Below are positions 4,179-55,055 of a DNA stretch of 55,055 bases, piece by piece; the stretch's first letter is position 1; each line of letters starts with the position of its first letter. The notes under the pieces are model-generated. The model saw nothing but the letters and a program-made list of their open reading frames with translations. It made no database searches and had not been told where the DNA came from. This stretch comes from a virus. A program made the position numbers and the translations under genes. Location of the stretch: UHGV virus genome UHGV-0209657, one strand, 5' to 3'.

Positions 4179-4469
4179 TTAATGGTAGCGGACTTTATCC
4201 AGGGGTTTTTCCCCTAAATGGCGTGGTTGCGTTGCGTGGTAGTAGCTGCCGCTTTCATTTTCCGTATACCATTTTACTGATCCTTTGCGACGTTCTTTAA
4301 TGCTATTTGGTTTGCATCTTTCCTCGTTTGCAAATCGAATAGCTTTATCCACATTGTCTGTTTTATTGATTGCAGGTGATGATTTTCTTTCGTTTTCTCT
4401 TTTTATTTTTCTGCGTTCCCTGGCATTCAGTTTACTGTCACATTTGCCATACATGATTGTAACGCTCAT
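4179..4469 (-). CDS. basic protein with N-terminal arginine-rich motif, possible N-like antiterminator
   Basis: First gene after candidate leftward promoter; NARERRKIKRENERK resembles an ARM; GGAG RBS before ATG. Confidence 0.3.
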   Translation of the reverse strand: MSVTIMYGKCDSKLNARERRKIKRENERKSSPAINKTDNVDKAIRFANEERCKPNSIKERRKGSVKWYTENESGSYYHATQPRHLGEKPLDKVRYH

Positions 4470-4836: not shown

Positions 4837-4935
4837 ATCGAGTCAATCCATTTTGTATACTTTTTTAAAATATTTTATATGCTATTGATATTTAAACAAT
4901 AAATAACGTTTTCTGTTTACGTTTTGGCGTTTTCC

Positions 4936-4965
4936 AGGCAAAGAAAAGCCGCCATCCGGCGGCTA
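4936..4965 (-). terminator. rho-independent terminator after cI
   Basis: Hairpin AGCCGCC-atcc-GGCGGCT followed on minus strand by TTTTCTTTG. Confidence 0.5.
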
Positions 4966-4969
4966 ATGT

Positions 4970-5617
4970 TTATGGCAGGTTTACGATCTTCGCATCAACC
5001 ACCACGCCTATAATTTTTGATTCTGGATTCATAGGGATTGGCGGATACAGCGGATTGAGCGAACGTAAAAGCCTTTGACCTCCATCAATAATCAACTGTT
5101 TAAACGTCGGTATCTGCCCTTCCTCAAGCTGGGCTATAACCAGTTTGCCGTCAATAGCTGGCGCGTGCGGGTCAACAAGTATCATCGTCCCCGCCGGGAT
5201 GCTCAACCCCTGCGGCGCGTTCATTGATTCACCTTTGGCAACCAGCCAGTAACTATCATCTGAACAAATAACGCTAGTCGTAACGTGTGGTAATGCTGAT
5301 CGCCTTGTGTCATCCATATTGTTTACTGTGTCCTTCCAGTCAATAACCGGGTAACTACCTAAATCACGCGGCGGTGCGGCCTGAAGTGTATTAGAAACAG
5401 AATCATCAATGACCATACCATCATGTGTAACAGTGAACTGCCGACGACCAAGCGCCCGCATAATCCGCGCAATATCTTCAAGATTTGGCTCGCGGCGACC
5501 GTTCAGCCAGTGTGACAGGCCGCCTTTAGTTATCCCCATGAGATCTGCGAGTGAATCCTGACTCATGCCCTGCGCCCGCATGAGCTGCTTTGCTAAGTCA
5601 TACCATTTTGTTTTCAT
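4970..5617 (-). CDS. cI: CI-like repressor (HTH plus S24 LexA-type autopeptidase domain)
   Basis: N-terminal HTH, C-terminal GESM Ser motif and downstream Lys; divergent from rightward operon. Confidence 0.85.
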   Translation of the reverse strand: MKTKWYDLAKQLMRAQGMSQDSLADLMGITKGGLSHWLNGRREPNLEDIARIMRALGRRQFTVTHDGMVIDDSVSNTLQAAPPRDLGSYPVIDWKDTVNNMDDTRRSALPHVTTSVICSDDSYWLVAKGESMNAPQGLSIPAGTMILVDPHAPAIDGKLVIAQLEEGQIPTFKQLIIDGGQRLLRSLNPLYPPIPMNPESKIIGVVVDAKIVNLP

Positions 5618-26864: not shown

Positions 26865-27119
26865 ATGAAACTGGTAGCGATTGACAGAAATCTGAAAGCA
26901 CAGAAAAACGCACAGGACCGGATCATCAAGAAAGGTAAGGAATTACTTAAAGCCTTTCTGAGAAAAGAAGTTTACCCCAAAAAGTTACGCGACGGTTACG
27001 GATACAAAATGGATATCAATCTTGATTGGAGGCTGTTTAGCGAAGATTTGAAGGTTTGGTTAATTGTTGAGCACCATGCCTATAACAAGTTATGTGGCGT
27101 GAAAGGCACTCATAAGTGA
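26865..27119 (+). CDS. hypothetical basic protein (84 aa), moron
   Basis: GGGTGAG RBS; followed by terminator. Confidence 0.35.
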   Translation: MKLVAIDRNLKAQKNAQDRIIKKGKELLKAFLRKEVYPKKLRDGYGYKMDINLDWRLFSEDLKVWLIVEHHAYNKLCGVKGTHK

Positions 27120-29675: not shown

Positions 29676-30335
29676 ATGAAACGGTTAGCAAAAGTGGCAA
29701 TGATTGCGGCGGTATTGGGTCTGGTTGGTTGCAATGAGGATAATGAAAAAGCGCCTATAGTGACCACTCAAGAACAACAAGCATTAGCAGAGAAAAATGC
29801 TAAATGGCTTGCAGAACAACAAGCAAAACAAGCCGCATATGAGGCACAGTTAGCAAAAGAAAAAGCTGGTAAACAGTGGCTTGTGGTCGAAAGAAAAGAT
29901 GATATGCAGGACACAAAAAACGTGTTCCTTTTCGTGAAAGCAGAACATTTCAGCGGAAGTCTTGATGCTTTCCCTACACTGAAAGCACGGGATGAAAACA
30001 AACCTGTATTAACAATCGCTTGCCAGGGTAATAAAACAAAAATGTTCGTAGCATGGTCAAACCATGTAACTGACGCTGGGGACACTACTTATATTAACTA
30101 CCGGATCGGCGATCACAAAGCTGTAGCTACTGAATGGAGTCGGTCAACTAACTATAAAGCTCTTGGATTATGGAACGGCAAAAAAGCCATTCCAATGATT
30201 AAAAAACTGGTTAACGAAAAACAATTTATCATTGAAGTAGTGCCGGAAGCTGGCGACATTGAGAAAGCAGTGTTTAACATTGATGGTCTTTATAACCACA
30301 TCGACAAAGTGAAAAACGCTTGCAACTGGAATTAA
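29676..30335 (+). CDS. lipoprotein (signal peptide plus lipobox LVGC)
   Basis: MKRLAKVAMIAAVLGLVGC N-terminus; opposite strand between tape measure and tail chaperone region. Confidence 0.6.
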   Translation: MKRLAKVAMIAAVLGLVGCNEDNEKAPIVTTQEQQALAEKNAKWLAEQQAKQAAYEAQLAKEKAGKQWLVVERKDDMQDTKNVFLFVKAEHFSGSLDAFPTLKARDENKPVLTIACQGNKTKMFVAWSNHVTDAGDTTYINYRIGDHKAVATEWSRSTNYKALGLWNGKKAIPMIKKLVNEKQFIIEVVPEAGDIEKAVFNIDGLYNHIDKVKNACNWN

Positions 30336-42636: not shown

Positions 42637-43107
42637 TTATTCTTTGCGTATGCACTGCGTTTTGATGTAGTCCTGTAATCCGGTGATCTTCGCGTCTTTC
42701 TCTTTTAGTTGTTCTCTGAGGGATAGATAATTTGATTGAGCACTGGCAGTAAGTCTACAGGTGGCTCCATTAATGCTGCTGGCGGTTCCGGTGGCGTCGT
42801 GCACGTACACTGGCTCGGCGTTGACGTGCAACCTGATAGCACCGCTATCAATGCCAGCGCGAAGATCGGCAATGTCAGATCTGATAGCTTTAATCTCATC
42901 GTGATACCTCTTATCAAGTTTTGACAGTTCGGCGTTTCGCTCCTTCATCTGCTGGATAGTGTTACTTGCTGTTTTTAGTGCGCCTTTCGTCACCGTGACT
43001 TCTTCCTGTAACCTTGCCGCCTCACCCTGGTAATAACACGTTACGGCGGTAAGCCCGGCAATAATGCAAACAACAACGGCGATGATTAACGTCTTCACCT
43101 TGTCCAT
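42637..43107 (-). CDS. Rz: i-spanin Rz
   Basis: N-terminal TM segment, coiled-coil periplasmic domain, directly after endolysin. Confidence 0.7.
42705..42899 (-). CDS. Rz1: o-spanin Rz1 (embedded in Rz, alternate frame)
   Basis: Embedded ORF with lipobox LSGC and Pro-rich mature region. Confidence 0.6.
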   Translation of the reverse strand: MRLKLSDLTLPIFALALIAVLSGCTSTPSQCTCTTPPEPPAALMEPPVDLLPVLNQIIYPSENN

Positions 43108-43587: not shown

Positions 43588-43788
43588 TTACTTATTCCCC
43601 ATTCGCGCGTCATGTTCCTCTTGCGCTCGCTTGTTCTCCTGTGATTTGAAGTAATAGTTGACGGCAAATGTGCCTATGGTTGATAAGATACCCACAAATA
43701 CAGCAACATCATTAATGGTTATCGCACCAAAAAAGGCCGTTACGACCCCTACTGCATACGCACATGCCTCCCGTATTTTGTCGAACAT
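43588..43788 (-). CDS. holin (pinholin-like, two TM segments)
   Basis: 66 aa, two hydrophobic helices, charged C-terminus, directly upstream of endolysin. Confidence 0.7.
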
Positions 43789-43804
43789 AGATTTTCCTCC
43801 AACA

Positions 43805-43830
43805 AAGCAAAAACCCGGCGCGGGGCCGGG
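43805..43830 (-). terminator. hairpin terminator upstream of holin (tR'-like)
   Basis: CCCGGC-gcggg-GCCGGG then T-run on minus strand, about 25 nt before holin RBS. Confidence 0.45.
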
Positions 43831-44067
43831 TAATTACAATTTCGCATTGTTAGGAAATATTTTAATCTGTTTGTTTACGCTCTACAAATACGGCTTACGC
43901 AGTTTTGTATATCAGGCCATTATCAAACAACATTTGCATATGCCACCGATCCATGTCGCTTGATTCCCAATGTGGATCGTCATCAGGTCTTATCATCACC
44001 TTATTACCTTTAAGTAAATAGACGATGTTAAATACCTTATGCAAATAGATGCCGTCTTCGATCTCGT

Positions 44068-44250
44068 TCACAGGTCGCTAACCTTCACCACGTCGCCGTT
44101 ATAAAGCATGATTTCAATTATTTCCCGCGTCATATCCATGAATGGCTCTTTCCACTCGCCACCATCGATACTGATACGAATATCATTACCCTCCACGCGG
44201 TAAAACATTTCATCAATGAGGTTCACGGCGTATATACCATCTTCAATCAT
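44068..44250 (-). CDS. island ORF (60 aa), paralogue of adjacent ORF
   Basis: FYRVEGNDIRI/EPF pattern shared with 44251-44475. Confidence 0.35.
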   Translation of the reverse strand: MIEDGIYAVNLIDEMFYRVEGNDIRISIDGGEWKEPFMDMTREIIEIMLYNGDVVKVSDL

Positions 44251-44475
44251 TTAACCGCCCTCTTTAAACATCCTGAACTTAATATCGCCAATCTTGCTCC
44301 AATGTCCGTGATTAAACATCATGATAACTTCTTTCGCTGTCACAGGTAAAACCGTTTCATGCCACGGTTCAAACTGGCGTGATCGCATCATTACGTGTTC
44401 ACCTTCAAGGCGATAATAAGCGCGTGACACCAATGACTGATAAACGCCGTCATATTGATGGTCGCTATTTCCCAT
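44251..44475 (-). CDS. island ORF (74 aa), paralogue of adjacent ORF
   Basis: YYRLEGEHVMM/EPW pattern shared with 44068-44250. Confidence 0.35.
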   Translation of the reverse strand: MGNSDHQYDGVYQSLVSRAYYRLEGEHVMMRSRQFEPWHETVLPVTAKEVIMMFNHGHWSKIGDIKFRMFKEGG

Positions 44476-44665
44476 TTTTACGCTCCTTAATGGCTCGCTT
44501 AATCTGCACTAGCGTTGCATCGAAGAAAGCGATAAACACCGCTACAGGCCAGAAAGGAATCTCAAGGCCACCACGATCGAGATCGTTACATTTGATGAAA
44601 CAAGACATCAGGATAGCGCCAGCGATATAAAGGAGAAATACAGCAAAGATAAGACATTCAATCAT
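44465..44665 (-). CDS. island ORF, small membrane protein (66 aa)
   Basis: Two hydrophobic segments. Confidence 0.35.
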   Translation of the reverse strand: MIECLIFAVFLLYIAGAILMSCFIKCNDLDRGGLEIPFWPVAVFIAFFDATLVQIKRAIKERKNGK

Positions 44666-44798
44666 CCTCTTTCTCCCCGCCTAAATATTGATAGATTTCT
44701 TCAGCATTTTCCCCGCGCTCAAAACAATAATGTTCAAACATGCGCCAGTTCTCACTAAGAAACATAACAATAAAATTTTTAACGTATTCGTCATTCAT
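44658..44798 (-). CDS. island micro-ORF (46 aa)
   Basis: ATG 2 nt after upstream stop; below ORF-track cutoff. Confidence 0.25.
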   Translation of the reverse strand: MNDEYVKNFIVMFLSENWRMFEHYCFERGENAEEIYQYLGGEKEDD

Positions 44799-44800
44799 AG

Positions 44801-45097
44801 TTAATCATCCTCTTCATCGTCTTCATGTTCAGCCAGGAAATCATCAACGACGCGGTAAGTTACTGGCGGTACGTATTCGAAATCATCAGAATCAAGATCG
44901 AGCGTCCTGCTGTCGCCGTCGTCGTCCATCGTATTCATTCCAAGTTCACCGAAAGGGCCGTACCCAATATGGCCCAGGTATTCGCAACCAACCGTAAAGC
45001 CAGGATATTCACCTTTACACCTGACTTTATACAGCTTGTTTGATGCGCTCAATTTCCGCCACTCCGTTTTCTCCTTCAGTGATTTTGTATTCCACAA
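44801..45097 (-). CDS. island ORF with strongly acidic C-terminus
   Basis: Ends DDFLAEHEDDEEDD; listed start is TTG, internal ATG at 44936-44938 may be the true start. Confidence 0.3.
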   Translation of the reverse strand: MWNTKSLKEKTEWRKLSASNKLYKVRCKGEYPGFTVGCEYLGHIGYGPFGELGMNTMDDDGDSRTLDLDSDDFEYVPPVTYRVVDDFLAEHEDDEEDD

Positions 45098-45368
45098 CCA
45101 GTTCAGCGCCGATCAAATCCACTTCGTTTTTAGATGTTTTATGGCTAGAATCAAACATCAGCGAGGCAAAAACGAAGTGTTTAACGTGATTTTCATCTTC
45201 AAGGTGTTTCACATCGAAAGGCGGTTCAGATACATGGAAGCACTTGATGTGAGCGTCGTTATCAGTAGCTACGCGGAAACATGCGCCAGGTTGCCCGGCG
45301 TACTGTCCCAATCTTTCTTCGTTCGGTAAAGTACCACGGAAAACTTTAACGCTGACAAAACTAGACAT
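45027..45368 (-). CDS. island ORF (113 aa)
   Basis: Co-directional packed ORF; start unverified. Confidence 0.3.
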   Translation of the reverse strand: MSSFVSVKVFRGTLPNEERLGQYAGQPGACFRVATDNDAHIKCFHVSEPPFDVKHLEDENHVKHFVFASLMFDSSHKTSKNEVDLIGAELVVEYKITEGENGVAEIERIKQAV

Positions 45369-45371
45369 TGA

Positions 45372-45629
45372 TTATTCCCCTTCGTAAAGAATTGCCACCA
45401 GTTCGGCATCTGTTAGCGTGTTGTGATCTTTATAAGTCCCATAGCGAGCAACGAAAGCTATTTCACCAGCTATCTTCCGCCACATAGGGATTGACTCATC
45501 AAAATAGGTATTCTCCATTCCCTCCCTGTATGCCAGTTCATAAAAACGCCCACGGTTAACATCTTCAATCACGCGGCTATATGTGCCATCAATCTTACTT
45601 ACGCCGCGCCATAGTCTGAACACAACCAT
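45372..45629 (-). CDS. island ORF (85 aa)
   Basis: Co-directional packed ORF. Confidence 0.3.
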   Translation of the reverse strand: MVVFRLWRGVSKIDGTYSRVIEDVNRGRFYELAYREGMENTYFDESIPMWRKIAGEIAFVARYGTYKDHNTLTDAELVAILYEGE

Positions 45630-45631
45630 AA

Positions 45632-45931
45632 TTAAAACTCCGCACCAGATAAGCTACGCGCTTTATTCACCGCGTCATGCTTTAAACATAGGCAGGCGTG
45701 GTAGTTCATAATCCCCATATTGCCTACAGGTATTTCATTATTTTCTGCCTTTATTCTGAATAACTGGTTTTTGGTGAAGATCCTGTCACCATCAGTGATA
45801 TATAACCAGTCTCCGCGCTTACCAACAACAACATGAGATCTGCCTAAACTGTCTTTAAATTCATAATTGCAGAAAACATCACCTTTAGGCACTTCAACAA
45901 AACAGCACGCAATGAATTTATCGCTTTTCAT
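45632..45931 (-). CDS. island ORF (99 aa)
   Basis: First gene after internal promoter-like region. Confidence 0.3.
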   Translation of the reverse strand: MKSDKFIACCFVEVPKGDVFCNYEFKDSLGRSHVVVGKRGDWLYITDGDRIFTKNQLFRIKAENNEIPVGNMGIMNYHACLCLKHDAVNKARSLSGAEF

Positions 45932-45960
45932 GATTTTGCCATCCGTCTTTCAGTGGCTTA

Positions 45961-46022
45961 TATATAACAAAATGGCACTACCGAAACAATGCCATTTCGT
46001 AAACATTGTGATACAGATCACA
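45961..46022 (-). promoter_or_regulatory. candidate CRP-dependent class I promoter inside island
   Basis: Perfect TGTGA-N6-TCACA at 46007-46022; -35 TTGTTT (45984-45989) and -10 TATATA (45961-45966) on minus strand; CRP centre about 61 nt from inferred start. Confidence 0.35.
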
Positions 46023-46023
46023 T

Positions 46024-46248
46024 TTACGTTTCTTCAGTAAAAGTAACCTTCATCGCCCCATCCGAACTACGGACAACATAGCGACCAGCTCCCCGGCGCG
46101 GCTCTGCATACCATAAGTGACCGTAAGTGTCAGTAACGACGATAAACGGCAATTTAGGAGACAATCCCATCGGTTTTTCAGCCGTATACTGTGCGCCTTC
46201 TTCAAAACAGCCTAATTTCGATTCGTTACACGTTAAAATCATTTTCAT
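46024..46248 (-). CDS. island ORF (74 aa)
   Basis: Shares F..G..Y...D..W pattern with neighbours. Confidence 0.3.
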   Translation of the reverse strand: MKMILTCNESKLGCFEEGAQYTAEKPMGLSPKLPFIVVTDTYGHLWYAEPRRGAGRYVVRSSDGAMKVTFTEET

Positions 46249-46481
46249 ACCCCTACATACGAAAACGCAGCAAAAGCACCACCAGCACGCGCATAAACAA
46301 GTGCCGTGCCATACCCCATCTTATAAAATCGCCATAACTGACCCTGGTCGTCAGTAATGGCATGAATATATTCCTGATCCTTTGCGTCAACCAATGCCGC
46401 GTCAACCTCGTAGATCTTGCCATTCTTAAAAAACGCGCTGCATCGTGAGTATGTGCACTGGTATCTATGTTTCCGATTCAT
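46245..46481 (-). CDS. island ORF (78 aa)
   Basis: Putative paralogue family (FKNGKIY...LWRFY). Confidence 0.3.
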   Translation of the reverse strand: MNRKHRYQCTYSRCSAFFKNGKIYEVDAALVDAKDQEYIHAITDDQGQLWRFYKMGYGTALVYARAGGAFAAFSYVGV

Positions 46482-46491
46482 AGCACCTCAC

Positions 46492-46785
46492 TTATTCCGG
46501 TTTACTGCCTTCGCGGGCGCAAAACTCCGCGATCTCACGGAAATCATGCACTATGCGATAAATATACAAACCAGCGGCGTTATTGATATGGCTAACATAA
46601 GCGAAATAAACTTTATCATCATCGCCAGTTATCGCCATTGCACCATCACCGCCCGGTGCGCCGTGGAGTTGAACGCCGCAATAGATCTTCCCTTCTTCAA
46701 AAATATTGCGGTCGCGCGTCTGCAATACCTCAAAATATAAATGTTTCATTGTTGCCCCTTTAATAACGTTCAAAGCTGGCAGCAA
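46492..46785 (-). CDS. island ORF (97 aa)
   Basis: Putative paralogue family (FEEGKIY...VYFAY). Confidence 0.3.
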   Translation of the reverse strand: MLPALNVIKGATMKHLYFEVLQTRDRNIFEEGKIYCGVQLHGAPGGDGAMAITGDDDKVYFAYVSHINNAAGLYIYRIVHDFREIAEFCAREGSKPE

Positions 46786-46972
46786 AACCTACACCGGATA
46801 TTTCACCGCCTTCATAGCTCGGCCTGAATACCCATATTTCGTCATGATTATCAATCAAGGCAAGGCAATTACTCATTGTGTGTGCTTCATTGCCATAAAC
46901 GATGTGAACGTCATAAATACTCCCAATCGTGAAAACACTGTCATTGCTTGAGTATGAGCATTTAACTTGCAT
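46760..46972 (-). CDS. island ORF (70 aa)
   Basis: Putative paralogue family (GSIYDV...IWVF). Confidence 0.3.
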   Translation of the reverse strand: MQVKCSYSSNDSVFTIGSIYDVHIVYGNEAHTMSNCLALIDNHDEIWVFRPSYEGGEISGVGFAASFERY

Positions 46973-47217
46973 CAGAAAACCCCTTTATAATCGACCGTGT
47001 ATTTTGCTATCAGATTCCAGTCGCAGTAATTAAGCATGTCGCGAGGCTGCCAGCCTTTCATCCCGACCGCCCGCCGCGCAGCGTGACGGCGATAATCATC
47101 GTTATAGTCAGCTATGCACCACGGCTGGAGAACAAACATATAATTTGCTTCATTAACCAGGATAGCCACCCGCTTTCCTGTTGCCTTGTCTTTTGCCCTG
47201 AAATAATTCACTTTCAT
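46972..47217 (-). CDS. island ORF (81 aa)
   Basis: Packed ORF. Confidence 0.3.
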   Translation of the reverse strand: MKVNYFRAKDKATGKRVAILVNEANYMFVLQPWCIADYNDDYRRHAARRAVGMKGWQPRDMLNYCDWNLIAKYTVDYKGVF

Positions 47218-47429
47218 TTTAATACCTCGTCGATCAGCATTTCTTCTTCCAGGTTAGCCGGACGTTTACGGAATATCCCGGCAAAAACCAGGTCATCAAG
47301 TAGGTCTTTGCGTTTAAATAGCCACTCTTTCATTATTACCCCGTCATCGCTGCGATATACGACGCCGTTTTTCAAAAAATAAAAAGTGCTGGTATTTGTT
47401 TGAAGGTATAAATCTTCGTAAACGTCCAT
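47214..47429 (-). CDS. island ORF (71 aa)
   Basis: Packed ORF. Confidence 0.3.
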   Translation of the reverse strand: MDVYEDLYLQTNTSTFYFLKNGVVYRSDDGVIMKEWLFKRKDLLDDLVFAGIFRKRPANLEEEMLIDEVLK

Positions 47430-47433
47430 GATA

Positions 47434-47661
47434 TTAACCCTCGACTACTTGCAAGCCGCGCCCCTTATCGCCTACGAAGTCGCCCAGGCTAAACGTATAT
47501 GACCACGCCGGGTTAATGTAGTAATCATCAGCACCGTGAGCGATAAGGTCTTTACCCAAAATGACGCAGGTCACATCATCAGAATGAACAACGTCTACCG
47601 TTTCCCCTACCACGCGTTTTAATGATGGGTAGCCGTGATCGTGCAAGAATTTAACTTTCAT
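47434..47661 (-). CDS. island ORF (75 aa)
   Basis: Packed ORF. Confidence 0.3.
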   Translation of the reverse strand: MKVKFLHDHGYPSLKRVVGETVDVVHSDDVTCVILGKDLIAHGADDYYINPAWSYTFSLGDFVGDKGRGLQVVEG

Positions 47662-47945
47662 ATTTCTTTCCCTTTATAAGTAACAGCATCAGCGATCAAC
47701 AATACCGCCAGCAATTCACCGTCATGTAACGGGTCTGGAATAGCAAAAAATATGTCGCTGTTTTTGTCCGGCACTACTACGCGCATATTTCCCTGTTTGT
47801 CTTCATGCACGAACCACGGCTTTTCGTGTGGCTCAAACATGCCGAAAAGTAATTTAAGATCTATTTCTTCACCCTTCGTGAATAACGACACATCAGTTGT
47901 AGTGATAACTAACGCTTTCTGATCTGCTGTTTTCTTCGCTCTCAT
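47658..47945 (-). CDS. island ORF (95 aa)
   Basis: Packed ORF. Confidence 0.3.
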   Translation of the reverse strand: MRAKKTADQKALVITTTDVSLFTKGEEIDLKLLFGMFEPHEKPWFVHEDKQGNMRVVVPDKNSDIFFAIPDPLHDGELLAVLLIADAVTYKGKEI

Positions 47946-48220
47946 TCCTCTGTCTCCCAGCGGTCTATGCTGATTAAAAAGTCCCGGATAGCGTGTCGCT
48001 CGTCGCGCGTCGGTTTACGCTTCCGGTAAATCTTGAAATCAAACCATTCTTTTTCTTGTTCGAAATCCAGATCGTAAGCAAGCGCCTCGATATATCCGCA
48101 GTCGTGATACTGGTAAGCCACGCCAGCACGAACAAAAAAGCGGGTTTTATCCCGCTTGTGTTCATAGATACACATATTTGCCCCACTATGCAGTTGTGTA
48201 ACTATCAACCAGCTTTTCAT
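47942..48220 (-). CDS. island ORF (92 aa)
   Basis: Packed ORF; preferred over overlapping 47974-48186 frame. Confidence 0.3.
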   Translation of the reverse strand: MKSWLIVTQLHSGANMCIYEHKRDKTRFFVRAGVAYQYHDCGYIEALAYDLDFEQEKEWFDFKIYRKRKPTRDERHAIRDFLISIDRWETEE

Positions 48221-48416
48221 CCTTCATTCTGGAAAGCTGCATGATATTCATCGTGTAGCCGTTGTCAGAGAAAAGCCACTCCGCAGCCTTGCGACGAAAA
48301 ACAATATCATCATGGTTATGCGTCCATGTAGCGATAACCACGCGCTTTCCGTCAGTGGCAAACATTGTTAATTCATTATCAACTACGTCGATAGCCTGCC
48401 AGATTTTTAGCTCCAT
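48186..48416 (-). CDS. island ORF (76 aa)
   Basis: Packed ORF. Confidence 0.3.
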   Translation of the reverse strand: MELKIWQAIDVVDNELTMFATDGKRVVIATWTHNHDDIVFRRKAAEWLFSDNGYTMNIMQLSRMKDEKLVDSYTTA

Positions 48417-48772
48417 GATTTACCCCCGTAAATTTTGAATAATTCCCGTGCCTCCTGATCTCCAAATATCTTCATATGCAGGTCATGCAGTCGTCGCATT
48501 GTGCGGAAGCGCGGTCTAAATTCCTGACTTCGTTTAATGTATTTACCGCCAATTGAATAAATATGCCCGTATGCATACCATCTGTTTCCTACCCATATGT
48601 CATATTCTTTGCCTTCGTAATTAAATTTGATTGTTAGCTCCCCGAATTCCATTATTAACCCTTTGTCGAGGATGTCATTAAGCATTTCGTCCCATTCTTT
48701 CAGGAATGGTTGCTGATAAAAACCGAAAAGCGTATTTGCAGCGTGGCAAAGGTAATCAATGATTATTTGCAT
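48407..48772 (-). CDS. island ORF (121 aa)
   Basis: Packed ORF. Confidence 0.3.
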   Translation of the reverse strand: MQIIIDYLCHAANTLFGFYQQPFLKEWDEMLNDILDKGLIMEFGELTIKFNYEGKEYDIWVGNRWYAYGHIYSIGGKYIKRSQEFRPRFRTMRRLHDLHMKIFGDQEARELFKIYGGKSWS

Positions 48773-48776
48773 ATTA

Positions 48777-48992
48777 TCACCACATCATATAATAAACGTT
48801 ATCGTTAGCTACTTTGTCGGCTCGTTCTTGTGTTAATAGCGGCGCACTTTCCATAAAAGCATCAAAATAATGCCACTTATAAACAAGCATACGCGCCCAT
48901 TTGCGGCGCTGGCGCTTATTGTGTCGCAGATCATCAAAAGCCTTTAACGCTTTGTCATACGCCCTTACCAGGCGTTTACGGTTACTTTTCAT
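48777..48992 (-). CDS. island ORF, basic protein (71 aa)
   Basis: Packed ORF. Confidence 0.3.
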   Translation of the reverse strand: MKSNRKRLVRAYDKALKAFDDLRHNKRQRRKWARMLVYKWHYFDAFMESAPLLTQERADKVANDNVYYMMW

Positions 48993-49197
48993 TTTTCACC
49001 CTTCCTATTTCCTTGATCTCAATATTGCGCAACCGGACGTCGCACGGCGTTTCAGATTTACCAGTAAGCGCCAGCGTCAGGTTTTCAGGTGTCGTGTAAA
49101 GAATTATCTCTTTACCAGTGCTAAATTTAATTTCTATGCGGATCTCGTTTTCATCACCGCACAATACGCGGCTAATTGACAGGCCAGCTTTTTTCAT
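48982..49197 (-). CDS. island ORF (71 aa)
   Basis: Packed ORF. Confidence 0.3.
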   Translation of the reverse strand: MKKAGLSISRVLCGDENEIRIEIKFSTGKEIILYTTPENLTLALTGKSETPCDVRLRNIEIKEIGRVKNEK

Positions 49198-49210
49198 TGC
49201 TCAACAAACC

Positions 49211-49510
49211 TTAAAATCTGTATTGCCAGTAAATATCACACTTTATTGCGAATACCTTCACCGGATCAGGGCCGAATAGTGGATGTTGAATCAACTTGAT
49301 TTCGTACCCCATGTAAGGCAATACGATAATCCGGTCTTTCTCATCATCCGATGGATAACCCCATTTAATGATTAATCTTGTGTACTCCCGCCCCTCCAGG
49401 CGTTTACGCCAGTATTCATTGTAAAGCCGGTATTCTTCCACCTTCTTTCCCGCCCGGATGGCGTGGAAGTATTCACCTTTTAAATTCAAATGTAAGTGTT
49501 TATTTGCCAT
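49211..49510 (-). CDS. island ORF, ASCH/DUF3850-like (PUA-fold) protein
   Basis: LHLNLKGEYFHAIRAGKKVEEYR resembles recalled ASCH-like N-terminus. Confidence 0.35.
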   Translation of the reverse strand: MANKHLHLNLKGEYFHAIRAGKKVEEYRLYNEYWRKRLEGREYTRLIIKWGYPSDDEKDRIIVLPYMGYEIKLIQHPLFGPDPVKVFAIKCDIYWQYRF

Positions 49511-49961
49511 CGCTATGATCCTGTAAACAGTCGTTATAGCCTTCGATGTATCCGGTTAATCCGGTATTACTTACTGACCATTCAGCCGTCCGGCGCTCGA
49601 TGGCCTTATCAACCGTCATTTCGTCACCAGGCCCGCCAGGCTCAATATATTTTTTCAAATCCCTTGCTATCCACGCCAGTAATTGTTGTGTATCACCACA
49701 CAACCGCGCTGATAACGTCAGGTCATTAACAAGTTTTGCAAAAAGATGTTCTTTTAATTTAGGCTTCATTGTCGTTACCCGCCCATAAATATGAACAGGC
49801 TTAATAGGTACGGCGGGCAATTCGCCATCGTTTAATGCGCTTGCCATTCCCAATATTAAACGCGCTTCAGCACCAGTGACTTTCTTACACCATGCACCGC
49901 CTGTTTTATCCTCGAACAAGATAACAGCAAACTGATCGTTTATTTCCAGTTTATCCATCAT
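49500..49961 (-). CDS. island ORF (153 aa), first gene after Q
   Basis: Start overlaps Q stop. Confidence 0.3.
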   Translation of the reverse strand: MMDKLEINDQFAVILFEDKTGGAWCKKVTGAEARLILGMASALNDGELPAVPIKPVHIYGRVTTMKPKLKEHLFAKLVNDLTLSARLCGDTQQLLAWIARDLKKYIEPGGPGDEMTVDKAIERRTAEWSVSNTGLTGYIEGYNDCLQDHSDGK

Positions 49962-50680
49962 TCACCTCGCGTCACTCGTTTAATTTCGTTATCAGCCCGC
50001 GCCTCTTCTTTGAACAATTCAGCGATGGCGTCTTCATAGAAAACCCGGTATTTTTTCCACCATGTTGATCGGCTTACCGGAAATACAAGCTGATTAACCG
50101 CACGCCGGACAAGATCTACAGGGAAACGCGAGTACCCGCGCCCGCCGCAATGCTGGCACGTTTTGAACACTGGCATTTCCGCTGCTTCACTGGCTGCTTT
50201 ATCCGGTATCTCGCCGCGCCCTTTGCATCGTTTACAATGATTGCGAACTTTTCCATGCCCCTTGCATTTTTTGCAAAGGTGTTTTTCTCCGTAGTCGTCA
50301 AACGTAAATTTATATCCGCCGCAATCCATACAAGTTTTTTCTGTCGCGGCACTCTGGCAGTAATCCCGAAACGCGAAAACGGCAACAAGAATAATAAGAT
50401 CATTGCGTTGTTCTTCATTTAATTCCATCACGTATTCGTAATCTTTCGCCATAACCCTTAAACGCTCTGTAAGCAAAATTACAGCCCTGTGTTTTTCAGC
50501 TTGCGATAGCTCCATTTTCCCTAAAAAAGCACTATAGCCAAGCTCTACGCGCGATTGCGCCATACCAGCGGCGGTAAGCGCATCCGTCGTATTAAGTGCA
50601 TCCGGGGATGTTCCCCGGCTTTCGCCTGATAATCGCGGTGATTTGGGAAAGTGGAATTTCAGAATGGATTCTAAATTCAT
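49958..50680 (-). CDS. Q: late-gene antiterminator Q (lambda type)
   Basis: LESILKFHFPKSP, AAGMAQS, ELSQAEK, FAFRDYCQSAAT, CGGRGYSRFP match recalled lambda Q; Cys-rich zinc-binding centre. Confidence 0.85.
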   Translation of the reverse strand: MNLESILKFHFPKSPRLSGESRGTSPDALNTTDALTAAGMAQSRVELGYSAFLGKMELSQAEKHRAVILLTERLRVMAKDYEYVMELNEEQRNDLIILVAVFAFRDYCQSAATEKTCMDCGGYKFTFDDYGEKHLCKKCKGHGKVRNHCKRCKGRGEIPDKAASEAAEMPVFKTCQHCGGRGYSRFPVDLVRRAVNQLVFPVSRSTWWKKYRVFYEDAIAELFKEEARADNEIKRVTRGE

Positions 50681-52292: not shown

Positions 52293-52368
52293 AATGCTCT
52301 CTCCTTTTCAGGTGATTTCTACGCATTTCAGCGCTGCCGGATTTTTAAAGAGCATTTCGTTTGCTTGA

Positions 52369-54833: not shown

Positions 54834-55055
54834 CCTAATCACGCGAAACAGTAAAGCAAAAACCGATGAATGCGCTACCAGCCAATAAAGCGCGTACAGT
54901 AAAAAGAATGCTTTCAATGTCGTTAAATTCAGGTACTGACCATGTAACAAAAATCATACCCAGCGTAAATATGACGATAGCGCCACTGAACACCAAAAAA
55001 AACAAAAAGCGTAACCAAAAGCCACGCCTTTAACCAGTTTAAAAAGCTCTTAACC

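Follow-up and report, generated by a model that had tools for sequence, protein, structure and literature searches.

The 55,055-nucleotide virus genome UHGV-0209657 (the whole stretch is called the window below) carries 24 small open reading frames (ORFs) on its minus strand, between the gene of the late antiterminator Q and the holin gene. We suggest, with moderate confidence, that this interval forms the accessory far end of the early operon, a nin-type region which is enlarged and lies after Q rather than before it. The source phage is an mEpimmI (mEp021-like) temperate coliphage. The closest kin of the window are temperate coliphages of the mEp021 group (seven phage records, 39-79% coverage, 83-87% identity), and no other phage group matched. 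Prophages in 35 of 5426 complete E. coli genomes match the region, the top match with 91% coverage and 91% identity. The mEpimmI phages are Nus-dependent and non-lambdoid, and are reported to occur in human gut samples at a frequency equal to that of lambdoid phages (PMC11893012).

Proposed placement of the array in the early operon

The genes of the minus strand follow in the order DNA methyltransferase, NinF-like ORF, NinG, RusA, two small ORFs, Q, the array, holin, endolysin and Rz. The features which place the array are:

52321-52354, minus strand: nutR2-like site, with boxA TGCTCTTTAAAAA at 52354-52342 and a boxB-like hairpin GCGCTGAAATGCGT at 52334-52321
49958-50680, minus strand: Q, 240 amino acids (aa), late antiterminator of the lambda family (Pfam PF03589, E 8.4e-29)
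43588-43788, minus strand: holin, so named in related records; it opens the lysis cassette, with endolysin and Rz next
4179-4469, same strand as the array: homologue of the N-like protein Gp17, with R17, R19, R20 and R24 present
4970-5617, same strand as the array: CI-like repressor; a strong pR-like promoter, TTGACT-17-TATATT, lies downstream

The nutR2-like site is located downstream of the methyltransferase gene and upstream of the block formed by ninG, rusA, Q and the array. Its position matches that of nutR2 in mEp021 (PMC11893012), and we infer that 52354-52321 is nutR2. R17, R19, R20 and R24 are residues described for Gp17 in the same work (PMC11893012). Judged by its sequence, Q is a true homologue of lambda Q, with 34% identity over the full length (E 2e-46) and a 31-residue insert with extra CxxC pairs. 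The early operon seems to leave the window at coordinate 1 and to re-enter it at 55055; the window is probably a circularly permuted complete genome. The array would then form the far end of the early operon.

The sequence-only reading of this DNA had described an island of about 23 small co-directional ORFs at 44068-49961. The island is real and lies on the minus strand, with the ORFs at the given coordinates, and the count has to be changed: a 24th ORF at 43895-44071 (GTG start) is a third paralogue of 44068-44250 and 44251-44475, and the array thus extends over 43895-49961. The overlapping stops and starts are also present, with 13 of the 24 array-internal junctions overlapping and gaps of at most 13 bp at ten others. 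The sole long gap within the array is a spacer of 92 bp (45932-46023), and another 106 bp (43789-43894) lie between the last gene and the holin.

ORFs were called and clustered in the Q-to-holin interval of 16 related loci, and presence is counted below over 17 loci. The interval ranges from 2.0 kb with 8 ORFs (mEp021) to 7.1 kb with 29 ORFs (strain KKa019); in 12 further IMG/VR contigs it measures 4.3-6.8 kb. The gene order is constant in the 17 loci, and the variation consists of presence, absence, duplication and fusion of single genes or blocks. We number the genes W01 to W23 from Q towards the holin, with x02 as the last. W06, W07, W10 and W11 occur in all 17 loci and W04, W05 and W09 in 16, whereas the remaining genes vary. 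Hence the accessory gene set proposed earlier stands, as just part of the genes is universal, while the uniform conservation as nin-type genes that was named as its opposite describes only that part. In part, then, the array consists of conserved nin-type genes. Among isolated, viable phages the number of array genes is 8-24, mEp021 having 8. The pooled ratio of non-synonymous to synonymous substitution rates (dN/dS) is 0.07-0.59 in all 29 families with enough members, and the array ORFs are therefore real genes.

We also note an in-frame chimera in mEp013 (positions 4940-5233 of locus L009), in which a W14-type gene (family B, see below) is joined to a W23-type gene (family A) at their common GGGEW motif. 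It is the scar of a deletion of ~2.4 kb that shortened the array of this phage.

In lambda the nin region comprises ninA-ninI with the terminators tR2-tR4 and is located between P and Q. The array is similar to it in its small, overlapping, co-directional and individually dispensable genes and in its place in an N-antiterminated early operon downstream of a nut site, the latter as read from the sequence and the assumed circular permutation. In lambda the modified polymerase ignores the terminators of the region, and the terminator-like hairpins of the array are candidates for the same. NinG and RusA homologues lie immediately upstream of the array block. Unlike the nin region, the array is downstream of Q, so that Q is 2-7 kb from its predicted site of action, and it has 24 genes against about ten and includes an internal promoter-like module as well as two families of tandem paralogues.

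Three terminator-like hairpins are predicted in the gene orientation, within W07, in the 92-bp spacer and before the holin. The first was found by the terminator scan:

48128-48157, minus strand: terminator-like hairpin inside W07, AAGCGGGATAAAACCCGCTT followed by TTTTGTTCGT

Its 30 nt are all identical in 15 of the 17 loci, and ARNold annotates a terminator here in mEp554. In mEp010 the stem is kept by a compensatory synonymous pair, CGG to CGC and ACC to ACG. Synonymous variation is suppressed in the codons of W07 that form the hairpin (7-16).

The hairpin before the holin belongs to a larger element:

43789-43894, minus strand: late-promoter-like cassette, with -35 TTGTAG at 43887-43882, a 17-bp spacer and -10 TAAAAT at 43864-43859
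Downstream parts of the same cassette: -10-like pause element AACAAT at 43851-43846 and terminator hairpin at 43831-43813, then a T-run

A hairpin and a late-promoter-like region had been read here from the letters, and the scans recovered both, as a G+C-rich hairpin, a T-run and promoter-like hexamers. The order TTGTAG-17-TAAAAT-7-AACAAT followed by the hairpin has the same layout as lambda pR', TTGACT-17-TAAATT-6-AACGAT, where AACGAT is a -10-like element that pauses the polymerase for the loading of Q. The 106 bp before the holin are near-invariant in all 17 loci, beyond the level of the flanking genes, and the -10 hexamer and everything downstream of it are invariant. No second pR'-like cassette or second hairpin element was found in the window within 9 mismatches. 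In mEp021 the pre-holin hairpin is annotated as TERM_5. With a cognate Q, a promoter, a -10-like pause element and a terminator at hand, the 106 bp are a candidate lambda-type qut cassette.

Since the pR'-like cassette is this near-invariant stretch beside the holin, the array lies upstream of the predicted late promoter. At the other end of the array the stop codon of Q overlaps the next start codon, and the gene content right after Q differs between relatives; therefore, no conserved site follows Q. The 92-bp spacer was considered as the late promoter and rejected, its alleles without the CRP site having no -10-like element upstream of the hairpin.

The strains M1/5, 2017C-4173W12 and MIN12 (loci L003, L011 and L016) carry an additional ORF of 228 bp, x08 (WP_071834126.1). 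It follows whichever family A gene comes last and immediately precedes the conserved 106 bp of the late-promoter cassette. Insertions thus end exactly at the cassette boundary.

The 92-bp spacer and its promoter-like module

The spacer holds the following parts:

45932-46023, minus strand: spacer module, with a CRP-type core at 46022-46007, the 12-mer TTTACGAAATGG at 46003-45992 and a -35-like TTGTTT at 45989-45984
Further parts of the same module: hairpin and U-tract at 45997-45963, and an extended -10, TGtTATATA, with its hexamer at 45966-45961

Of the 17 loci, 15 have the spacer, as do 34 IMG/VR contigs; it invariably follows the family B block, at a constant place in the gene order. The palindrome TGTGA-N6-TCACA at 46007-46022, which had been pointed out as a perfect CRP-type site, is indeed the sole perfect match in the window, against 0.06 expected, and 18 of 22 positions agree with the CRP consensus. 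Its class I placement is borne out as well: counted from its centre, the TG-extended -10 begins 48.5 bp away, so that the site is centred at -60.5 to -61.5. A class I promoter has its site near -61.5 upstream of a weak promoter, and in the layout TTGTTT-17-TGtTATATA the -35 is weak. Of 49 related elements, 24 retain both half-sites, around four different spacer sequences, and 46 retain the left half GTGATCT.

The 12-mer ties the spacer to other parts of the genome. It is enriched window-wide in the form TWTACRAAATGG, with 25 matches against 10.1 expected, a number reached in none of 100 shuffles, and with four perfect copies. The best sites are at 4848, 5691, 9960, 26610, 29589/29617, 45992 and 52371/52438. 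Most of them lie outside coding sequence and precede a start codon of the same strand by 60-80 nt (contexts read by eye). Copies of the 12-mer are often paired in inverted orientation, 16 bp apart, and -35 hexamers follow directly. At three sites other than the spacer, namely the pR-like promoter and the promoters of a ParE-like and a VasI-like ORF, it abuts strong promoter hexamers, with promoter scores that 0.5% of random positions reach. The 12-mer may be an UP-like promoter element, or an operator to which a phage regulator, for instance the CI-like repressor, binds.

The two latter ORFs lie on the opposite strand among the tail genes and encode a protein with a ParE-like toxin domain (26865-27119, plus strand) and a member of the VasI (type VI secretion) family (29676-30335, plus strand). 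A 12-mer module in front of them is as expected for morons. The region upstream of the VasI-like ORF (29676) aligns with the spacer over ~90 bp and has TGTGATCTG at equal distance; by this alignment the two modules are homologous. From the 12-mer sites and the alignment with the VasI region we favor a promoter module in the spacer, perhaps doubling as a terminator.

Palindromes of the form TGTGATC...(A/G)TCAC(A/G) recur in the window, 7 against 2.7 expected, among them those at 786, 17581, 24932 and 52414 besides the one at 46007. Several adjoin the 12-mer upstream of opposite-strand ORFs of the structural region, and one is within a long hairpin in the spacer between the methyltransferase gene and nutR2.

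Such a module may mean that the distal block from W16 to x02 (45931-43895) is an autonomous unit of the moron type, activated by cAMP-CRP and expressed from the prophage. This is compatible with an early operon that also reads the block, and we hold it possible, if somewhat doubtful. It is favored by the consensus CRP core at its distance of 48.5 bp from the TG-extended -10, by the half-sites kept around four spacer sequences, by the modules of the same type before the ParE-like and VasI-like morons and the pR-like promoter, and by the strong terminator at which the block ends. The morons of Hendrix consist of a promoter, a gene and a terminator set between phage genes. Similarly, the distal block has a promoter-like module at one end and a strong terminator at the other, and the module precedes the ParE-like and VasI-like ORFs too. 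Unlike a moron, the block consists of nine co-directional genes instead of one, and its base composition is not foreign: the G+C of the array, 0.42-0.45, shows no contrast with the rest of the phage. Two further points speak against such a unit: 25 of the 49 elements have another sequence in place of the right half-site and lack a complete CRP site, and the promoter hexamers match at 7 of 12 positions.

A second possibility, which we regard as similarly doubtful, is that the spacer is solely an intrinsic terminator like lambda tR2-tR4, with TGTGA...TCACA being incidental or a second small RNA hairpin. In the gene orientation the RNA would fold into a stem of 12 bp capped by a UUCG loop (-11 to -14.6 kcal/mol), with AUUUUGUU behind it, G-U wobbles keep the pairing in the variants, and the palindrome itself folds into a 6-bp hairpin. 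ARNold terminators are annotated here in mEp044, mEp554 and mEp010. However, the module upstream of the VasI-like ORF, whose spacer is not self-complementary, keeps the 12-mer arms, the -35 and -10 hexamers and TGTGATCTG, and other genomic copies of the 12-mer go together with promoter hexamers.

Proteins encoded by the array

No array protein exceeds the threshold in Pfam, NCBIfam or PADLOC, Q excepted. The matching PHROGs are all of 'unknown function', apart from a weak secondary match of W05 to a family named 'membrane protein' (E 1e-05), and five array ORFs have no PHROG match. Two tandem families stand out:

43895-44475, minus strand: family A, three tandem paralogues, W22 (44251-44475), W23 (44068-44250) and x02 (43895-44071, GTG start)
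46024-46972, minus strand: family B, four tandem paralogues, W12 (46760-46972), W13 (46492-46749), W14 (46245-46481) and W15 (46024-46248)

The paralogy of 44068-44250 and 44251-44475 had been proposed from their appearance, and profile comparison confirms it (hhalign probability of 96.5% for W22/W23 and 95.5% for W23/x02); all three members match PHROG 15318. The recurring pattern reported for 46024-46972 is likewise found, as F..G..Y...D..G..W in W12-W15. W12 and W14 each align at ~96.7% with the related family x03, W15 aligns with x03 at 72% and W12 with W14 at 66%, and W13 joins weakly, at 41% to W14. The family x07 was rejected as a member (hhalign below 10%). Both families are nearly restricted to mEpimmI-type phages. 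Among 5.8 billion proteins family A has 157 clusters, with Escherichia as the organism wherever a name is given, and family B has 63; an exhaustive search of 1.84 billion representatives gave 26 matches to family B. The sole clearly multi-domain relative that was found, P0310 (212 aa), has two tandem family B domains and a C-terminal hydrophobic anchor.

Profile searches of family A, family B, W02 and W10 against PDB sequences returned no significant match. A match of family B to the 'Cake' designed beta-propellers (E 1.9e-7) was rejected as evidence for a propeller blade: no single stretch passed, weak repeat matches had been summed, and the match was lost with a deeper family B profile. For structure prediction, alignments were built from the window sequences and database hits. 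The AlphaFold2 model of W12 (predicted local distance difference test 82) is a barrel of six strands, the first two of which are joined by a long loop, and these are the features of the Gp54(Bas11)-like barrel. In a Foldseek search against viral models it matched small uncharacterised proteins of enterobacterial phages, with a template modelling score up to 0.74. Gp54 itself shows no sequence homology to family B (hhalign 0.2%; phmmer E above 1 against all members) and did not appear in the PDB profile searches. Based on the model, which matches Gp54 in structure, we claim a common predicted fold of family B and Gp54 of Bas11, not family membership. Gp54 (PDB 9AXB) is a direct trigger of the defence protein CapRelSJ46. 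It is a non-essential small protein, and may inhibit another defence system according to its authors (PMC11578894). Family B differs from it in having no detectable sequence similarity, in its structure being a prediction and in its tandem array of 0-5 copies.

The array might be a counter-defence island, several products of which inhibit anti-phage systems of the host. The genes are small, dispensable, early-placed and variable, the predicted family B fold is that of a suggested inhibitor, and the array also encodes an acidic protein as well as a homologue of a small virion-associated protein. On the other hand, no named defence or anti-defence family was found in PHROGs, Pfam, NCBIfam or PADLOC (the last for ten proteins), and dN/dS indicates purifying rather than diversifying selection. 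We therefore consider this role rather unlikely for the array as such. More specifically, the paralogues of family B could be diversified Gp54-like barrels which engage host immune sensors, as inhibitors or decoys of CapRel-like or other defence proteins; going by the predicted fold, this is a speculative idea of low probability.

The other genes of the array are:

49500-49961, minus strand: W01, 153 aa, start overlapping the Q stop (ATGA), a fusion of two ORFs
49211-49510, minus strand: W02, 99 aa, predicted ASCH/PUA-like fold
48982-49197, minus strand: W03, 71 aa, PHROG 1222, 8 of 17 loci
48777-48992, minus strand: W04, 71 aa, basic (isoelectric point, pI, 10.2), PHROG 8758, 16 of 17 loci
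48407-48772, minus strand: W05, 121 aa, PHROG 16975, 16 of 17 loci, dN/dS 0.10
48186-48416, minus strand: W06, 76 aa, homologue of mEp021 gp38, PHROG 38280, 17 of 17 loci, dN/dS 0.13
47942-48220, minus strand: W07, 92 aa as listed, PHROG 30442 aligned from residue 16, dN/dS 0.066
47658-47945, minus strand: W08, 95 aa, PHROG 33175, 8 of 17 loci
47434-47661, minus strand: W09, 75 aa, PHROG 5009, 16 of 17 loci
47214-47429, minus strand: W10, 71 aa, homologue of mEp021 gp41, 17 of 17 loci
46972-47217, minus strand: W11, 81 aa, PHROG 38609, 17 of 17 loci
45632-45931, minus strand: W16, 99 aa, no Pfam or PHROG match, 14 of 17 loci, dN/dS 0.25
45372-45629, minus strand: W17, 85 aa, PHROG 32200, two copies in strains PAR and LSU61
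45027-45368, minus strand: W18, 113 aa, PHROG 23107, 15 of 17 loci
44801-45097, minus strand: W19, acidic (pI 4.05-4.34), C-terminal end ...AEHEDDEEDD, PHROG 25234 covering residues 16-98
44658-44798, minus strand: W20, 46 aa, acidic, PHROG 15754, 5 of 17 loci
44465-44665, minus strand: W21, 66 aa, hydrophobic (grand average of hydropathy +0.82), two hydrophobic segments, PHROG 10061

W02 has an ASCH/PUA-like beta-barrel fold in the predicted structure, as had been supposed from its sequence. Against Pfam PF04266 it scores 17.0 bits, under the cut-off of 21.2 (E 0.01), with its N-terminal 26 residues alone aligned, and 4 of 41 members of its family reach E of 0.01 or less. It is similar to the ASCH/PUA-like proteins E. 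coli YqfB and P. horikoshii PH0355 in predicted fold, size and N-terminal motif, and differs from them in staying under the Pfam cut-off and in the mostly phage-borne nature of its family. Homologues of W02 and W03 are found in many temperate and virulent coliphages, including Shiga toxin (Stx) phages, HK022, HK620 and Salmonella phages, some of them beside EaA or hka genes; those of W03 include hkaF of HK620 and ORFs in Stx phages and Dhillonvirus. Homologues of W09 with ~43% identity occur in virulent rV5-like myophages. Since W02, W03 and W09 have homologues in other phages, the array draws partly on a coliphage-wide gene pool.

The earlier reading had pointed out that Stx phages carry toxin cargo between Q and the holin. 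If the array were late cargo of this kind, its transcription would begin at a Q-dependent late promoter close behind Q and accompany that of the lysis genes. Extra genes between Q and the holin and the W02 and W03 families are indeed common to both. However, Stx genes lie downstream of pR'/tR' and are Q-dependent, whereas the array precedes the pR'-like cassette. The sole cassette of this kind is the near-invariant one beside the holin, and the overlap of the Q stop with the next start, followed by variable genes, leaves no conserved non-coding site after Q. In the Stx-phage records the homologues of W02 and W03 are 2-7 kb from one record end, some adjoining an EaA gene, a position which we read as the early-left accessory region and not as the Q-S interval. 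Late cargo of this type is thus highly improbable, and no toxin or known virulence gene is present in the array. As for chance reading frames or decayed pseudogenes, most of the ORFs lack a named family and many are shorter than 80 aa, but dN/dS well under 1 in all 29 families, conservation across the 17 loci, PHROG matches for most ORFs and confident predicted folds for two dismiss this reading.

Several other array genes deserve comment. W01 consists of an x04-like N-terminal and a W01-like C-terminal part, which are two separate, overlapping ORFs in most relatives; the parts match PHROG 35000 (residues 2-62) and PHROG 29262 (residues 65-153), and hhalign of W01 with x04 gives 100% over 61 columns. 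Strain 2017C-4173W12 has the same fused form. The real start of W07 is likely the ATG at 48175, giving 77 aa, and this frame is present in all 17 loci. W10 is 93% identical to gp41 of mEp021, annotated as 'virion structural protein', and in the phage collection searched it is confined to mEpimmI phages. A small virion protein encoded upstream of the lysis region was detected by mass spectrometry (PMC11893012). The C-terminus of W10 has two forms, of 71 and 82 aa, the latter overlapping the start of W11 by ~38 nt; the difference stems from small indels near the gene junction. The extremely acidic tail ascribed to W19 is there, with 19 Asp/Glu and 2 Lys/Arg in the last 45 residues. Its start is uncertain, at the TTG at 45097, at the ATG at 44938 or as in the 83-aa form annotated in relatives. 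W21 is, by its hydrophobic segments, probably a small membrane protein.

Outside the array, an ORF at 42705-42917 on the minus strand with a lipoprotein-type signal sequence, out of frame within the Rz gene, is probably the Rz1 outer-membrane spanin. A scan of the window with Rfam at gathering scores gave no match, and no tRNA genes were found in it.

Proposed route of transcription and its meaning

Some points weigh against placing the array at the end of the early operon with Q acting beside the holin. The promoter, the pause element, the nut site and the terminators are sequence predictions only, and the early operon crosses the ends of the window, where circular permutation is assumed and terminal repeats were not detected. 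Five of the 17 loci have another sequence in place of the -35 hexamer of the pR'-like promoter; the idea that the -35 allele tracks the Q allele was rejected, there being no such match among the loci. The pre-holin hairpin need not be t5, the terminator of mEp021 shown by experiment. In the spacer, the weak hexamers and the hairpin and U-tract which ARNold calls a terminator in related records mean that it may terminate rather than initiate transcription, and 25 of the 49 related elements lack the complete CRP site. The link to Gp54 rests on one predicted structure, with no sequence support. Taking these points into account, we still favor the early-operon reading and suggest the following route.

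Step 1: RNA polymerase would start at the pR-like promoter beside the repressor gene. It would be modified by the N-like Gp17 at nutR1 and nutR2 and then read ninG, rusA, Q and the array.

Step 2: The modified polymerase would pass the three terminator-like hairpins, in W07, in the 92-bp spacer and before the holin. The translation of most array genes would be coupled to that of the preceding gene. The small accessory products would most likely act early in the infection, by binding host proteins or nucleic acids and modulating them.

Step 3: Q made from the early transcript would act several kilobases downstream, at the promoter beside the holin.

Step 4: The 92-bp spacer may serve as a second entry point, built like the pR-like and moron promoters, with the 12-mer by the -35 and a TG-extended -10. 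The nine distal genes could then be expressed separately as well, possibly from the prophage under catabolite control, and the consensus CRP site is found in about half of the relatives.

We suggest that as much as 7 kb of accessory genes may come to lie between a lambda-type Q and the site where it acts. Because of this, the position of a gene relative to Q says nothing on whether it is early or late cargo, and the late promoter itself must be located. The 106-bp qut cassette, the 92-bp CRP-responsive promoter module and the three terminators are candidate parts. Of specific interest are the displaced late promoter, the Gp54-like tandem family and the promoter module. The 12-mer of this module is common to the pR-like promoter, the morons and the array, which hints at a joint control of accessory genes. 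The orphan tandem family would be tied to the rare fold of Gp54, one of a handful of small phage proteins which a bacterial immunity protein is known to recognise directly. If the family does engage immune sensors, each of its paralogues is a potential trigger too, and the array would be a record of the arms race and a set of natural variants for mapping sensor recognition.

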